This document shows positions 1-6,000 of a stretch of DNA of 64,000 nt, piece by piece. Within the stretch, counting starts at the first letter, position 1. The number at the start of each line of letters is the position of its first letter. A program made the position numbers. Source of the DNA: Gemmatimonadales bacterium (lineage in GTDB: Bacteria > Gemmatimonadota > Gemmatimonadetes > Gemmatimonadales > GWC2-71-9); contig JBFJHJ010000001.1 of the NCBI GenBank assembly GCA_041613315.1, positions 32,001 through 96,000 on the forward strand. Direction: 5' to 3'.

Positions 1-3000
1 CTCGCTGCGAACCCGGGAGCGGACGGAAGGGGGTGCCTGGAGTGAATCCCGAGCGGCGCTGGACTCGGTCTGGTTCCAGCTGGACTTCGACGCGCGGCTC
101 CGGCTGCGACGGGCCAACCGCGCTGACCGCGTGCCGGAAGCGGGTGCCCTGATGCACTTGATGACCGGTCTCCCCGGGCTCATCCTGCCCGAGCGCCCCC
201 TCCGAGTGGGCGAGCGCTGGTCGGTCGACATGGCGATGCCCCTGTCCGCGTGGGTGATGCGGCCGTCGAGCGCCGAACGCGAACCGCCGCTCAGGGGGGA
301 GGCGACCCTCACGGTGGACAGCGTGGTGGCGCGCACGCGAGACACCCTGGCGTATCTGAGCGTCGAGGGGACGATCGGCCCGGACACGCCGGACATCGCG
401 ACGGCCTCGGTGTACGGTGGCGGCGTAACTGGCACGCTCGTCTGGTCCACGGGGTGGCACGCCTTCGTCGCTGCCGCCACCCGCGTTCGTATGCACGTCG
501 CGGGGCCCGCCCCGCCGACGGCTGGCGGGCCGCGGCCGCAGGTGGCGATCGAGACGACGCTTCGCCAGCAGGTCCGCCCCTAGGGCCGTGAAGCTCGCGC
601 ACCTCGCCGACGTCCACCTGGGCTTTCGCCAGTACCACCGCCTGACGCCCACAGGAATCAATCACCGCGAAGCCGATGTCGCTCTCGCCTTCCGCCGTAC
701 GATCGATGACGTGATCGGCACGGGGCCGGACGCGGTCGTGATCGCGGGCGATCTGTTTCACAGCGTGCGGCCGACCAACACGGCGATCTTGGATGCGTTC
801 AATCAGCTCCGTCGGCTCCGCGAGGCACTGCCCGCTGCCCCCGTGGTGATCGTCGCCGGCGATCATGACACGCCGCGCTCGGTCGAGACCGGCACGATCT
901 TGCGGCTCTTCGAGGCCCTCGGCGTTCATGTGGTCGCTGCGGAAGCGCGGGAACTCGTGTTCGGCGACCTGGACCTCCGGCTCTTGTGCGTGCCGCATGC
1001 GGCGCTCGTGAGCGGCGGGCGGCCCACCCTCACCCCCAAAGGTGGAGGCACGACCGTGCTGGTCACGCACGGCGAGGTCGCCGGCGTGCTCCCCGAGCAC
1101 GCCAGCGCCCGCGAGTTCGGCGGCAGCGTCATGGAGCCCTCCGAGCTGCATGCGGAGCGATGGGATTACGTGGCGCTCGGCCACTATCACGTTGCGCACC
1201 GGGTGCGGGACAACGCGTGGTACGCCGGCGCGCTGGAGCATGTCAGCCCCAACCCCTGGGGCGAGCTGCAGGACGAAGCGCGCGAGGGACGGCCCGGGCA
1301 GAAGGGATGGCTCCTCGTGGACCTGAGCGACGGCGCGCGCGTGACGTTCCGGCCGGTGGTGCAGGCCCGGCGCTTCATCGATCTGAAGCCGGTGCACGGC
1401 GACGGACTCACCGCGGACGAGATCCACGCGGCCATCCGCGAGCGGGTCGATGCGGTGGCCGGCGGCGTGACGGATCAGGTCGTGCGCCAACTCGTGTGGG
1501 ACGTGCCCCGTTCGGTGGCGCGAGACCTCGACCATGAGTGGATTCGCGCGGTCAAAGCTCGGGCCCTGCACTACCATCTGGATCTCCGGCGACCCCGCCC
1601 GCAGCGCGAGGTGGGCGTGGGCGCTCCGGGCGCGCGCCAGACGCTGAACGATCTTCTGGCGGAGTACCTCGGCCACCGGCCGCTCCCGGCCGAGCTCGAC
1701 CGGACGGCGCTGGTCGCGCTGGGGCGGCGGTATATGGAGGCGGTCGACCGCGAGGCCCAGGGGACGTAGATGCAGCTCCACCGTCTCCGCCTCGAGAACT
1801 TTCGCCAGCACGCGCAGACCGAGATCGTGTTCGGTCCCGGCATCACGGCGATCATCGGGCCCAACGGCGTGGGGAAGACCACACTGCTCGAGGCGATCGC
1901 CTGGGCGTTCTACGGCGCCTCCGCGGCCAGGGGCAGCCGCGACACCATCCGCTGGCACCACGCCCCCGCCCGGGCATCCGTTCGCGTGGACGTCGAATTC
2001 ACCCTGGGCGCCCACGAGTTCCGCGTCGTCCGAGGCCTCTACACGGCGGAGTTGTTCCAGGACGGTGCGGAGCAGCCGATCGTCATCAGTCATCAGGAGG
2101 TCAGCGCCCGGATCGAGCGTTTCCTCGGCATGACGCGAGAGGAGTTCTTCAATACGTATTTCACCGGACAAAAAGAGCTCGCGGTCATGGCGGCGATGGG
2201 ACCGACCGACCGCGCGCGCTTCCTCTCGCACGTGCTGGGGTACGACAAGCTACGGGTGGCGCAGGACCGCCTCCGGGAGGTGCGGTCCGGCCTGCGCGGA
2301 GAGCTCGCGGGCCTTGAGCGGGGGCTGGTCGATGCGGACGAGCTCTCGCGGGAACGGGAGACGGCGGTTGCCCGACTCGCCGCGGTCAGCCGGGCCGTGG
2401 AGGAAGGGCGCACGCGGCAGGGCGCGGCGCGTCTCGCGCTCGAGCGGGAAGGCCCAGCGTGGACCCGCGCCGTCGAGATACGAGAGTCGGCGCTCTCGCT
2501 GGATGGGGAGCGACGGGTGGCGGAACGGGATGTGGACGAGGCGCGTCGCGCATTCGAGCGGCTTGACCGCGAGCTCGCCGAGGCGCTGGCGGCGAAGGAC
2601 CGGCTGGCGACGCTCGCGCCGGAACTCGACCAGGTGGCGCCCCTCAAAGCGGACCTCGAGCGCCTCGAGCGGGAGGCGCAGGGGGCCGGCCGCCGCCGGG
2701 CGTTGGAGGGACAGCAGCGCGAGGTCGCGGACCAGGTGGCCCATGTGCGGGAGCGACTGGCTGGAGCGCAGGACGCGCCGCCCCGGCTCGACGCCGCGCA
2801 GCGCGCGCTTGCGCCGGCCCGTGAGACGCTCACGGTGGCGGAGGCGGCGGAGGAGACGGCGCGGACGGCGTGGGTGCGGGACCGGCAGGACGCGGAAACG
2901 AAGCGGCAGACGTTCCGAGACCAGTATGCCGACGTGCAGAAGCACCGCCATGCGGTCGTGGAGGCCGGGTCGGAGGGAGCGTGTCCGGTGTGCAAGCGCG

Positions 3001-6000
3001 CGCTGGGCGCCGTGTATCAGGAAGTGCTCGACACGTTGGAACGACAGCTGGAGGAGATCGAGGTCAAGGGCAAGTTCTTCCGGCAGCGCTACGAGCAACT
3101 CGGCACGGAGCCGGCGGAGGTTCGCGAGGCGCAGCGCCGAGCGGTTGCCGCGGCACGGCGCGTGGAAGAGGCCGTGCAGGACGTGGCGCGGTGGGAGGCG
3201 CGGGAGCGGGAGCGGGCCGAGTTGGATACGGAAGTCGCGCGGCTCGAGGAACACCGCCGGGCACTCGAGCGCGAGGTGGCGGCGCTCCCGGACACGTATG
3301 ATGCGGAACGGCACGACACGGTACGCCAGCGGCTCCGGGCGCTGGAGCCCACGATCCAGCAGGCGGCAGAGGTGCGGGGGAAGGCCGAGCGGGCCGAGCG
3401 GCTGGTCACGGAGGCCGAAGCGGCCGAGAAGGCGCTCTCTCAGTGCGAGCAGCGCGTCAAGGATCTGCAGGCAGCCCTGGCCGATCTGGGGTACAGTGAG
3501 GAGCGTTACCATGAGGCGCGGTCGCGCTACGAGGCCGCTGCGGCCGCGGTACGGGAGGCGGACCTGGAACTGGCGTCGGTGCAGGGAGATCTGCGGGCCT
3601 GTGAGGCGACGCTGGAGGCAGTGGCGCGGCGCATCAAGGAACGGGAGGAACGGGCGGCGCGCCTTGTGGGCGTCCGGCGGGAGCTGGATCTCCACGACGA
3701 GCTGGACCAGACGCTCCACGACCTCCGGCTGGAGCTCAATGCGGCCATGCGGCCGGATCTGTCCGAGCGGGCGTCCGAGTTCCTCGCCGACTTGACGGAC
3801 GGTCGCTATCACGAGCTGGAACTGGACGAGCAGTACCGGGTGCTGGTCATCGAAGACGGCGTCCCCAAACCCGTGATGTCCGGGGGCGAGGAGGATCTGA
3901 CCAACCTGGTCCTGCGACTGGCGATCAGCCAGATGGTGGCCGAACGCGCAGGACAGCCCTTGTCCTTGCTCGTGCTCGATGAAATCTTCGGGAGTCTGGA
4001 CGAGCATCGGCGGCGCAACGTGGTGGAGCTGCTCCGGCGGCTCGGTGACCGGTTCCCGCAGGTGGTGCTCATTACGCACGTCGAGTCGGTACGCGACGGC
4101 GTCGACCGGGTGCTTCGGGTGGCGTTCGACGAAGAGCGCGGGGCCGCGGTCGTGACCGACGACGAGGAGGTTCCAGTCGGTGAAGATGTGGCGGCCTGAG
4201 CGTGTCGTGCAGGGCCCGCGCGTGGCGTCACTCGAGGACATCCCGGCGCTCAACCGGGTGTTCTCGGATGCGTTCACCGACCGATACCGTCGGGACGGGC
4301 TGGTTGGGGTGCGAGTTCCCCAGTTGAACCCCGATATCTGGCGCTACGCGCTCGAGGATGCCGGCGACGGGGCGATGCTCTGGTACGACGAGAGCGGGGA
4401 GATCATCGCGTTCAACATCGCGCACCGCTCCGGCACCGAGGGGTGGATGGGCCCCCTCGCGGTCCGAGCCGACCGCCAGGGCCTGGGTCTTGGGCGCACG
4501 ATCGTCGAGACGGCGGTCGACTGGCTTCTGGAGCGCGGTGTCACGACGCTGGGGCTTGAGACGATGCCGCGAACCGTGGACAACATCGGTTTCTATGGCC
4601 GGTTGGGCTTTCTCCCCACGTATCTGACGGTGACGATGACCGGCGAGCCCGGTCGACGCAACGTCGCCGGCCGGTTCCAGCGAGTGGGCGCGCTCCCGCC
4701 ACACGCCAAGCGGGACATCGTGGCCCGGTGCCGCGAGCGGCTGACGCAAGCCGCCCCGGGCTACGATTTCAGCCGCGAGATGGAGCTGACCGACGAGTTG
4801 GGGATCGGCGACACCGTGGTACTCGAGCGAAACGGTGTCGTGGCGGGCTTCGCCCTGTGGCACTCGGCGCCGCTCGCCGAAGTGCGCCCCACGGATGAGC
4901 TCAGGATCCTCAAGCTGTTCGCCGACTCGACCGATGCGTTCGGGCGCCTGCTCGTGATGCTCGATGCCTGCGCCGCGGCGCTCGGGATCCGCCGCGTCGC
5001 CATCCGGTGCCAGACCGCCTACGCGGACGCCTACCACACCCTGCTGGCGCGGGAGTACCGCGTGCGCTGGACGGACCTCCGTATGACCTACGCGAGCTTC
5101 CGCGAAGCAACGCCGCCCGCGGGGCACGTGCTGTTTTCGAACTGGGAGATCTGAGCCTACCGCTGGGCGCGATCCCGATCCACGATCCCCTTGACGAGGA
5201 AGACCGTGCCGACGGCGAGCGGCACGTGCACCCATCCACTGGGGACCGCCCACACGAACGCCAGCGCCAGCCACAGTACGAGACAGCCCAGCGCGAGCGC
5301 GAACGCCCGGTTCATTCCGGTGCCTCCCGTCGGGGGAGCCGGCGGACGCAGACGTGCCGAATGACGCGAGCGTGCCGGCGAGCCTTGGCAAGGTACGCGA
5401 CCGACGGCGGACCGCAATACTCCCGAGAATAAGCGACAGCGGTGCTGGGCGCGCTTGACGGTCATCAGCGGTGTTTCTATATTCGCGCACTCGCGGGGGT
5501 GGGGAGCAACATTATTGAGCCAACAAGCTCGACAGCGCGTCCAGGTGCGGCGGTGGATGTCATGCCCCGCTGGGGAAGGCAGAAGTCGCGGCTAGGGCGC
5601 GATAGATGTGTGTTCGGGCTTCAATAATCCTCTTCGCTCCCGTTTTCCCCGCGCTTCCATGGGCGGGGAACTTCTGACGGCGGCTCGGCGCGTGTGACGC
5701 CGGGCCGCCATTCGCTTGCCGGCCCGGTCGAGTAGATTACGCTGCTTCCACGGACGCCGCTGCGTGGACGTGGCAGGCGACGTCACGACGAAAGGACGGC
5801 GCTGGTGTCCCAGGATCCCAAGATCGTCTCGCTCAAAGAATCCGCCGCGGTCGACGGCGAACTCCGCCGCCTGGTGCGCCGGCTGCTCGAGCTCATTGGA
5901 GAGGATCCTTTGCGCGAGGGGCTGGTGCGCACGCCGGCCCGCGTGGAGGAGTCTCTCCAGTGGCTCACCCGGGGCTACCAAGAGTCGCTGGAGCAGGTGG

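Follow-up and report, generated by a model that had tools for sequence, protein, structure and literature searches.

A soil-type bacterium of the order Gemmatimonadales carries, side by side, four break-processing genes (nurA, herA, mre11 and rad50) whose clustering had been considered peculiar to heat-loving archaea. With a probability of roughly 60%, we regard the cluster as a chromosomal, vertically inherited module that processes the ends of DNA double-strand breaks and is built from two head-to-tail units. The organism has other means of processing broken DNA ends as well. A 2026 review denies stable synteny of bacterial nurA with mre11/rad50 (PMC13748450), which makes the Gemmatimonadales cluster a modest novelty. 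A class of Actinomycetota shares its gene order.

The cluster comprises seven genes in one direction, each overlapping or abutting the next. The window, that is, the whole stretch of 64,000 nucleotides that was analyzed (from position 32,001 of contig C1), holds the 3′ end of the gene for secreted paralogue B together with the genes for Mre11, Rad50 and a GNAT acetyltransferase. The remaining genes lie upstream on C1 and were taken from the contig as locus L001 (C1:22001-40000; window position = L001 position - 10000):

C1 27881-28906 (L001 5881-6906), upstream of the window: NurA-like protein (g00031)
C1 28903-30846 (L001 6903-8846), upstream of the window: HerA-like protein (g00032)
C1 30836-31738 (L001 8836-9738), upstream of the window: secreted paralogue A (g00033)
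Window 1..583, + strand: 3′ part of secreted paralogue B (g00034); whole gene C1 31735-32583 (L001 9735-10583), starting 265 bases before the window
Window 588..1769, + strand: Mre11/SbcD-family nuclease, 393 aa (g00035)
Window 1770..4199, + strand: Rad50/SbcC-family ABC ATPase with coiled coil and zinc hook, 809 aa (g00036)
Window 4180..5154, + strand: GNAT acetyltransferase, 324 aa, with a 20-base overlap with the rad50 stop (g00037)

From NurA to GNAT, the junctions measure -4, -11, -4, +4, 0 and -20 bases, reproducing the seven-gene arrangement and the tight, operon-like packing described in the survey's finding. The same-direction run reaches further upstream through genes for an amidohydrolase, a 169-aa protein and an aminotransferase, and the downstream neighbor of the GNAT gene encodes an unrelated AMP-binding enzyme on the opposite strand. 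Because the arrangement is kept in dozens of genomes, chance open reading frames in DNA of 70% G+C are ruled out.

The proposed identities of NurA, HerA, Mre11 and Rad50 were reproduced as well, and for NurA and HerA simple sequence comparison with solved structures adds further support. Here, HerA matches Deinococcus radiodurans HerA (E 1.6e-39) and NurA matches D. radiodurans NurA (E 3.2e-6), while a NurA profile retrieves D. radiodurans NurA at 7.8e-9 and Thermotoga TM1739 at 2.6e-8. Apart from a chance-level match of HerA (E 0.85), these bacterial proteins are the only solved relatives found by sequence, and searches with the single proteins (E up to 10) and with the NurA profile (E up to 1) retrieved no archaeal chain of either protein. 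Judged by these sequence relatives, the pair is of the bacterial type known from Deinococcus and Thermotoga and not archaeal, so that the description of the operon as archaeal-style was wrong for NurA and HerA. Residues of catalytic type are conserved in both: the FLDG and VDG motifs of NurA and its residues K224, R285 and E287 are invariant or near-invariant among 24 sequences from several phyla; the Walker A Lys and Walker B DE of HerA are invariant among 37 sequences. In the HerA tree, cyanobacterial HerA, which is encoded at loci devoid of mre11/rad50, forms the sister group of the Gemmatimonadota clade, and the actinobacterial clade stands apart; the linkage of nurA-herA with mre11-rad50 therefore either arose twice or was retained twice.

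Mre11 matches Pfam Metallophos (46.6 bits, cut-off 21.5) and contains the motifs DVH at residue 8, GDLFH at 54 and GHYH at 198. Its motif III reads GDHD, with Asp for Asn, as opposed to GNHD in 89 of 90 Gemmatimonadota-type orthologues. Among NCBIfam profiles, archaeal ones score highest (Mre11_Sulfo 84 bits, Mre11_Halo 74 bits), followed by sbcd TIGR00619 (65 bits), all of them below their cut-offs, and the closest solved relatives are the Mre11 proteins of P. furiosus and M. jannaschii (E 3e-13), then that of Thermotoga. Rad50 matches Pfam SMC_N (83.5 bits, cut-off 40) and scores 212 bits against the archaeal Rad50 profile PRK03918 of NCBIfam versus 96 bits against sbcc TIGR00618, both below cut-off. 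It exhibits a Walker A motif (GPNGVGKT) at residue 30, SGGE at 704 and LLVLDE at 733, and its zinc-hook CPVC lies at residue 405, the midpoint of the protein; a CPxC hook is found in all 73 full-length Rad50 orthologues. No other SbcC/Rad50 homologue was found in the genome, making Mre11/Rad50 its sole SbcCD-type pair. Across the order, Rad50 is present in 119 of 121 genomes.

The arrangement nurA-herA-[variable slot]-mre11-rad50-GNAT is kept in two Gemmatimonadales families (f1 and f2) and, without a GNAT match, in one genome of another order (f5, locus L170). In f1 and f2, all 20 loci contain herA, mre11, rad50 and the GNAT gene, with NurA detected in 17. Among 66 Gemmatimonadota-type loci of named records, those with enough flank contain NurA in 58/60, Mre11 in 48/48, Rad50 in 40/40 and GNAT in 35/35 cases. 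HerA is found in 120 of 125 f1 genomes and 57 of 69 f2 genomes. The proposal that the whole order relies on the set fails in a third family (f3), where a single genome out of 27 has a HerA match, a weak one (E 8.5e-4), and all seven loci fetched show aminotransferase-169aa-mre11-rad50-GNAT at the same locus with nurA-herA absent. A few f1 and f2 genomes also lack nurA-herA and keep mre11-rad50-GNAT; in these and in f3, nurA-herA was lost or never present, and no dependence of Mre11-Rad50 on NurA-HerA is visible. Furthermore, gene order kept within this bacterial order is weak evidence of function, since the upstream aminotransferase and 169-aa genes are as syntenic as the cluster genes themselves. 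In the class of Actinomycetota, HerA occurs in 90 of 104 genomes and nurA-herA-slot-mre11-rad50 in 14 of the 16 loci fetched. An Ogg/AlkA-like DNA glycosylase gene lies 3′ of rad50 in three of these 16 loci and in L149, and DNA glycosylase genes adjoin the cluster in L129 and actinobacterial loci.

The GNAT protein matches Pfam Acetyltransf_1 over residues 52-144 (53.2 bits, cut-off 20.7), its closest solved relatives being RimI (5isv, E 1e-5) and Naa30. Its conservation after rad50 was borne out within the order: the gene lies 3′ of rad50 in 20/20 loci of f1 and f2, in 35/35 Gemmatimonadota-type loci whose flank spans 7.5 kb or more, and in 10/10 loci without herA. No GNAT match follows rad50 in L170 or the Actinomycetota loci, nor is there one beside the Rad50 of Tumidithrix. 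GNAT accompanies mre11-rad50 rather than nurA-herA.

The secreted paralogues are frequent yet dispensable tenants of an insertion slot between herA and mre11. They are not fixed members of the cluster: a two-paralogue profile detects the family in 52 of 88 slots. In paralogue B, a signal peptide precedes a body rich in beta structure. It gave no Pfam match at E 0.01, and a protein atlas score of 0.95 offers a lead toward DUF6263-like proteins. The AlphaFold2 model of paralogue A (pLDDT 87.2, pTM 0.84) best matches lipid-binding open beta-barrels, namely lipovitellin (1lsh_A, E 6e-6, TMq 0.49), ApoB, MTP and LmcA. The slot ranges from 12 bp to 3.6 kb and is shorter than 150 bp in 21 of 80 loci; its cargo includes a CLC channel on the opposite strand (L039, L041, L165) and, in L174, a restriction-modification system. 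A single transcript across the cluster is therefore not general; in this genome, the genes may be co-transcribed.

In the reading that we prefer, the first unit would be nurA-herA, where HerA, by analogy with solved complexes, would act as a hexameric dsDNA translocase feeding DNA into a NurA nuclease dimer. The second would be mre11-rad50, the cell's only SbcCD-type complex, to which the RimI-like GNAT may be attached. In vivo, Mre11-Rad50 would most probably recognize and tether the ends and make initial cuts, followed by ATP-driven, long-range degradation by HerA-NurA to yield 3′ tails for RecA. The module would act beside the genome's RecJ/RecQ route, not replacing it. In archaea, there is precedent for the four proteins working together (PMC3326311; PMC13748450).

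Alternatively, nurA-herA and mre11-rad50-GNAT might be independent neighbors that merely adjoin at a conserved locus, itself an insertion hotspot, and serve different processes, for example plasmid or foreign-DNA handling or fork processing by NurA-HerA, and ordinary SbcCD hairpin or end cleavage by Mre11-Rad50. The elastic slot with its unrelated or opposite-strand genes, the f3 loci that are identical except for the absence of nurA-herA and the equally conserved aminotransferase all suit this explanation, as do seven NurA-HerA loci from outside Gemmatimonadota that extend 6 kb or more downstream and contain neither mre11 nor rad50, and Tumidithrix, where Rad50 lies on another contig. We nevertheless consider it unlikely, given that a distant phylum shows this gene order too, that the four genes also stand together in archaea, in other orders (PMC13748450), and that herA and mre11 are separated by less than 150 bp in 21 of 80 loci, all seven genes overlapping or abutting in this genome. 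Far less probable still is a role in anti-phage or anti-plasmid defense, with a HerA-family ATPase, a nuclease and an SMC-like ATPase degrading foreign DNA as in Lamassu or MADS. PADLOC does match Rad50 to LmuB (123 bits) and mad3 (120 bits) and HerA, weakly, to mad8 (E 5e-5), one review states that viral DNA is the main target of degradation by bacterial NurA-HerA (PMC13748450), and one actinobacterial slot holds restriction-modification and PIN-like genes. However, the archaeal Rad50 profile scores higher, no further defense component was found among the eight proteins scanned, the genome's only SbcCD homologue lies inside the cluster, and DNA glycosylase genes adjoin related loci; unlike patchy defense islands, the cluster is single-copy, sits in a housekeeping neighborhood and occurs in nearly all f1 and f2 genomes.

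The survey's finding had gone further, making the four-protein set the main, obligatory end-resection machine of Gemmatimonadales in place of RecBCD/AddAB, with GNAT as a possible fifth component. In the assembled 82.9% of this genome, there is indeed no RecB over cut-off, RecC, PD-(D/E)XK_1 domain or match to Gemmatimonadales AddB; PD-(D/E)XK_1 matches are also absent from 33/46 f1 genomes and 75/104 genomes of the cluster-bearing Actinomycetota class, and within the order GNAT always adjoins rad50. The claimed absence of RecBCD/AddAB thus stands for the assembled part of this genome but not for the order, where at least 22 of 121 genomes encode paired PD-(D/E)XK proteins of ~1000 aa, called AddAB-like from one pair that was checked and is AddA/AddB-like; 18 of these genomes also have HerA. 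RecJ (486 bits) and a RecQ-family helicase (393 bits) score over their cut-offs here; across the order, 56 of 61 genomes encode RecJ. A sole or main route is therefore unsupported. In D. radiodurans, knocking out both nurA and herA raised resistance to UV and mitomycin C ~10-fold (PMC9960219), the opposite of what an obligatory machine implies. With f3 devoid of nurA-herA, GNAT kept without nurA-herA and missing from the f5 and Actinomycetota clusters, and the genome incomplete, we find this explanation improbable, more so than that of independent neighbors.

Compared with known systems, the closest solved relatives of NurA-HerA are those of D. radiodurans (PDB 7f6d) and Thermus thermophilus, likewise with nurA before herA. 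Deinococcus is also a host without RecBCD/AddAB and with RecJ and a RecQ-family helicase; there, however, nurA-herA is described as an operon of its own (PMC9960219 on both points), whereas here it abuts the mre11-rad50 pair in two families. E. coli SbcCD and Thermotoga maritima Mre11-Rad50 share the families and the nuclease-then-ATPase order with the present pair, which has no second copy of its kind in this genome. Unlike bacterial SbcCD, the present pair scores low on equivalog profiles (SbcD 31-65 bits, SbcC 38-96 bits), its Rad50 falls short of the 1043 positions of the sbcC profile TIGR00618, and it is linked to nurA-herA and GNAT. The resemblance to Lamassu (LmuB) and MADS ATPases lies in the SMC/Rad50-like ATPase head, in contrast to the core, syntenic distribution, the higher archaeal Rad50 scores and the partner defense genes, which the PADLOC scan did not find. 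With the archaeal cluster, the present one shares the joint occurrence of the four families, an Mre11 and a Rad50 that score best on archaeal profiles and solved structures, and a Rad50 that, at 809 aa, is as long as archaeal ones and has its CxxC hook at the center. The archaeal orders are herA-mre11-rad50-nurA in Sulfolobales and Pyrococcus and nurA-rad50-mre11-herA in Thermococcus, while here the order is nurA-herA-...-mre11-rad50, a variable slot splits the cluster, GNAT is appended, NurA and HerA belong to the bacterial clade and the hosts are bacteria.

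A cluster of seven genes on one strand, all abutting or overlapping in this genome, enters the window, contig C1 positions 32,001 to 96,000, from upstream. Its first part was read in locus L001 (contig C1, 22,001 to 40,000), where window positions equal L001 positions minus 10000. The members are as follows:

L001 5881-6906, + strand: nurA-like gene, with similarity to Deinococcus radiodurans NurA
L001 6903-8846, + strand: herA-like gene, with similarity to D. radiodurans HerA
L001 8836-9738, + strand: paralogue A, secreted
L001 9735-10583, + strand: secreted paralogue B, a member of a signal-peptide family, with its last 583 bases inside the window
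window 588-1769, + strand: mre11, encoding a Metallophos protein
window 1770-4199, + strand: rad50, with head motifs and zinc hook
window 4180-5154, + strand: GNAT gene, with an Acetyltransf_1 domain

Hence nurA, herA, mre11 and rad50 are clustered and co-directional, with an overlap of 4 bases between nurA and herA and with two extra genes splitting herA from mre11 here. The same-strand run extends further upstream and includes genes for an amidohydrolase, a 169-aa protein and an aspartate-aminotransferase-like protein, while the downstream neighbour of the GNAT gene is unrelated and lies on the opposite strand. A scan for sigma-70 promoters and terminators gave nothing above shuffled sequences inside the cluster. 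Because the DNA has about 70% G+C, long open reading frames are weak proof of genes, and the reality of these genes rests on their conservation in other genomes. Together with the gene coordinates, this conservation bears out the seven-gene cluster described in the survey's finding, and its naming of NurA, HerA, Mre11, Rad50 and a GNAT protein proved right on sequence, profile and motif evidence. The gene of the 169-aa protein (L001:3698-4207, C1 25698-26207) lies upstream of the window and keeps its synteny with the cluster throughout the order; searches of Pfam, NCBIfam, PADLOC and PHROGs assign the protein to no family.

Neither the NurA-like protein nor the HerA-like protein matches a Pfam or NCBIfam family at E 0.01, the curated NurA models and the DUF87, HerA_C and HAS-barrel families included. 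Their identity follows from solved relatives and motifs. The NurA-like protein matches D. radiodurans NurA (7f6d_H) at E 3.2e-6 by phmmer, and a profile of 24 NurA homologues reaches the same chain at 7.8e-9 and Thermotoga TM1739 (1zup) at 2.6e-8. Across these 24 sequences from several phyla, conservation of the FLDGxQ (D88, G89, Q91) and VDG (D203, G204) motifs is complete or at least 90%, and K224, R285 and E287 are invariant; the naming of "DG" motifs I and II as acidic motifs of the RNase H-like core of NurA follows PMC13748450. The HerA-like protein matches D. radiodurans HerA (7f6d_B) at E 1.6e-39 (139 bits) and carries a Walker A motif GxSGxxxKTS and a Walker B motif VFVDELNK, of which the G, K and D-E residues are invariant in 37 sequences. 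The sequence search of solved structures returned no archaeal NurA or HerA chains, the remaining rows being chance-level or unrelated, and the pair of this genome is therefore, as judged by sequence, of the bacterial type. The archaeal origin that had been claimed for NurA and HerA is thus wrong or at least unproven, since D. radiodurans NurA and HerA are the solved structures that they match significantly, joined by Thermotoga TM1739 when the NurA profile is used.

Mre11 exceeds the cut-off of Pfam Metallophos, and its best equivalog profiles all stay below theirs (Mre11_Sulfo, 84 bits vs 500; the SbcD profile TIGR00619, 65.3 vs 77.65). Archaeal proteins lead both its profile scores and its solved relatives, ahead of Thermotoga and SbcD. 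The calcineurin-like phosphoesterase motifs I, II and V are present, and motif III (window 858-869, residues 91-94) reads GDHD in this genome, compared with GNHD in 89 of 90 Mre11 orthologues of the Gemmatimonadota type and GNHE in all 15 actinobacterial ones; the difference could reflect a genuine change in the active site or an assembly or consensus error of the metagenome-assembled genome (MAG). Rad50, the only SbcC/Rad50 homologue of this genome, has 809 aa and ABC head motifs on either side of a coiled coil, with Walker A at residue 30, the CPVC zinc hook in the middle of the protein at 405, SGGE at 704 and Walker B at 733, and the hook is kept in 73 of 73 orthologues. It too scores below the equivalog cut-offs, with 212 bits vs 700 for its best profile, the archaeal PRK03918, and 96 vs 478.5 for the SbcC profile TIGR00618. 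For Mre11 and Rad50, "archaeal-like" refers to profile and PDB scores only. The GNAT protein matches Acetyltransf_1 with 53.2 bits vs 20.7, and its closest solved relatives are RimI and Naa30.

Within a sample of 121 genomes of the order, HerA was found in 42 of 46 genomes of family f1, 39 of 47 of family f2 and one of 27 of family f3, the last by a single weak match (E 8.5e-4). Rad50 was found in 119 of the 121 genomes, among them all 27 of f3. All 20 loci fetched from f1 and f2 have herA, mre11, rad50 and GNAT in one conserved order, and NurA was detected in 17 of them. Among 66 loci of the Gemmatimonadota type (named records, a few of them assigned by at least 60% HerA identity plus synteny), those with enough flank have NurA upstream of HerA in 58 of 60 cases, Mre11 in 48 of 48, Rad50 in 40 of 40 and the GNAT gene in 35 of 35. 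The cluster is also present in records titled Gemmatimonas, a genus with cultured mesophilic species. In the loci of HerA-less genomes (seven of f3, two of f1 and one of f2), an aminotransferase gene, mre11, rad50 and the GNAT gene occur in 10 of 10 and the 169-aa gene in 8 of 10; this gene lies 179-330 bp upstream of mre11 in all seven f3 loci fetched. One of these f1 genomes (locus L165:3439-8820 of G119) keeps a remnant of nurA, and in the place of herA has opposite-strand genes for a CLC channel and a Rieske/FAD-oxidoreductase.

In a wider sample of 301 genomes of the phylum, orthologous HerA (E <1e-200) was found in 120 of 125 genomes of f1, 57 of 69 of f2, one of six of f4 and the single genome of f5, a family of another order; families f6-f8 have distant HerA-like paralogues only, and no HerA was found in the 22 genomes of f9-f12. 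The f5 locus holds herA, two secreted paralogues, mre11 and rad50, with no match to the GNAT gene. Since the cluster occurs in f1, f2 and f5 and nurA-herA is missing in f3, the linkage probably predates Gemmatimonadales and was lost in f3; transfer may be an alternative origin of this distribution. Reliance of the whole order on the four-protein set, as proposed earlier, is accordingly wrong or unproven, with HerA in one of 27 f3 genomes and f3 loci that keep mre11-rad50-GNAT without herA. The tallies of HerA, Rad50 and PD-(D/E)XK_1 by order, phylum and class include the unpublished genomes G077, G090, G217, G335, G347 and G410-G414; no locus fetched for the synteny counts comes from unpublished genomes. 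In three loci of f6-f8 (L171, L172 and L173), the HerA-like paralogues (32-37% identity) adjoin genes for SMC/Rad50-like ATPases that are about 26% identical to this Rad50, and these pairs may belong to a different HerA-plus-SMC system.

The stretch between herA and mre11 is variable, ranging from 12 bp to 3.6 kb and measuring less than 150 bp in 21 of 80 loci. A profile built from paralogues A and B finds their family in this slot in 52 of 88 loci (50 of 80 with herA and two of eight without), and all members have a signal peptide. The AlphaFold2 model of a paralogue (41-sequence alignment; pLDDT 87.2, pTM 0.84) has its best structural matches among lipid-binding open beta-barrels (lipovitellin, ApoB, MTP, vitellogenin and LmcA), and a protein atlas offers DUF6263 as a lead to the family. 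Further tenants in Gemmatimonadota are a CLC channel (L039 and L041, the same channel as in L165) and an AlkZ-like DNA glycosylase (L129:13514-14602, in one Gemmatimonadaceae MAG). In Actinomycetota the tenants include ASCH proteins, a restriction-modification pair and PIN-like, beta-lactamase-like and PhoD-like proteins. One such locus (L174:6164-9260, genome G431) has an Eco57I-like methylase, a XhoI-family endonuclease and a PIN-like DUF5615 protein between herA and mre11, and ASCH-domain proteins also occupy the slot of L184, L186, L187 and L188. The paralogues are thus frequent passengers and do not belong to a DNA machine.

The range of HerA was assessed with a protein library clustered at 50%; a plain homologue search gave only close Gemmatimonadota proteins. 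A locus scan with one genome per species and a 9-sequence HerA alignment covered 80 of at least 543 confirmed loci, so that other phyla with the cluster are possible. Among these 80, nurA-herA occurs without mre11 or rad50 in 13 loci outside Gemmatimonadota, seven of them with at least 6 kb of downstream sequence, and the hosts are Planctomycetales, Anaerolineae, three cyanobacteria, Armatimonadota, one archaeon and other bacteria. In an Actinomycetota MAG (locus L149), an Ogg/AlkA-like glycosylase gene comes after nurA-herA-mre11-rad50. Of the 104 genomes of its class, 90 have a HerA orthologue, and the arrangement nurA-herA-slot-mre11-rad50 is seen in 14 of the 16 loci fetched there; Ogg/AlkA-like glycosylase genes lie 3' of rad50 in L149, L176, L182 and L189. 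In a quick HerA tree (LG+G4, 43 sequences), two cyanobacterial HerAs, whose Mre11-Rad50 is unlinked, form the sister group of the Gemmatimonadota clade (SH-aLRT 100), and the actinobacterial clade stands separate on a long branch, its exact place being unsure. The Rad50 of Tumidithrix is 32% identical to this Rad50 and is encoded on another contig among unrelated genes.

Regarding other routes of end resection, searches of this genome, which is 82.9% complete, found neither RecB over its cut-off nor RecC, a PD-(D/E)XK_1 domain or a match to a Gemmatimonadales AddB; RecJ and a RecQ-family helicase exceed their cut-offs. Across the order, RecJ is found in 56 of 61 genomes and PD-(D/E)XK_1 matches in 49 of 121. 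By our reading of the match table, 22 genomes (seven of f1, 11 of f2 and four of f3) have two matches that lie about 3.3 kb from each other, in reading frames of about 1000-1100 aa, and the pair of G059 scores best on the AddA and AddB profiles. HerA is also present in 18 of these 22 genomes. Of the 104 genomes of the Actinomycetota class, 29 show at least one PD-(D/E)XK_1 match and five have AddAB-like pairs, the unpublished G335 among them. Lineages with the cluster thus mostly have no AddAB or RecBCD, yet the two are not exclusive and genomes with neither are common, and related genomes are not independent in these counts; Deinococcus-Thermus likewise is without AddAB and RecBCD (PMC9960219). 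Compensation by AddAB for the missing nurA-herA was considered and rejected, as an AddAB-like pair is present in only four of the 27 genomes of f3. The earlier view that the cluster replaces other resection routes is likewise wrong or unproven in light of RecJ and RecQ here, RecJ in most of the order and HerA beside AddAB-like pairs in 18 genomes.

Most likely, the cluster is a housekeeping module for the processing of break ends, in which a bacterial-type NurA-HerA pair is joined to the cell's only Mre11-Rad50 and acts alongside RecJ and RecQ. A role in defence of the Lamassu or MADS kind would draw on a likeness that consists of generic ATPase-head matches only; those systems differ in having partner effector genes and a patchy distribution on islands, neither of which was found here, where the distribution is that of core genes. 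It is also conceivable, if rather unlikely, that NurA-HerA was joined to Mre11-Rad50 independently in archaea, Gemmatimonadota and the Actinomycetota class (lineages mostly without AddAB or RecBCD), that these bacteria use all four proteins as a genuine machine for long-range resection, and that in Gemmatimonadales a dedicated RimI-like acetyltransferase tunes this machine through its action on Mre11-Rad50.

Bacterial NurA-HerA is described as occurring in a few bacteria, Deinococcus-Thermus for example, and an about tenfold higher resistance to UV and to mitomycin C is reported for the nurA-herA double knock-out of D. radiodurans (PMC9960219). The literature search returned no report of a bacterial nurA-herA-mre11-rad50 cluster, though Iyer et al. 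2004 and Constantinesco et al. 2004 may list some, and nothing on its occurrence in Gemmatimonadota or on linkage of a GNAT protein to Mre11-Rad50. The novelty is modest: the kind of cluster is known, and what is new is its presence in bacterial lineages for which reviews deny it. Bacterial NurA-HerA currently figures in papers as a rarity of Deinococcus-Thermus. In the present data, two Gemmatimonadales families and most genomes of an Actinomycetota class have the four genes in stable linkage. The long-debated cooperation of Mre11-Rad50 with HerA-NurA thereby becomes testable by genetics in bacteria, with natural controls in sister lineages that have lost nurA-herA or have AddAB in addition, and the GNAT gene fixed beside rad50 offers a concrete candidate regulator of a bacterial Mre11-Rad50 complex.

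Two further observations concern neighbouring subjects. A nurA-herA pair is present in a Hydrothermarchaeota MAG (Candidatus Pyrohabitans, L080), with its HerA on a long branch among bacterial-type sequences. Contig C25 of the genome under study encodes a 1107-aa UvrD/Rep-type helicase (L008:5972-9295, + strand) with an RNase_T (DEDD 3'-5' exonuclease) domain at residues 712-864; the domain sits between the helicase domains, and this helicase-nuclease fusion could itself act on DNA ends.
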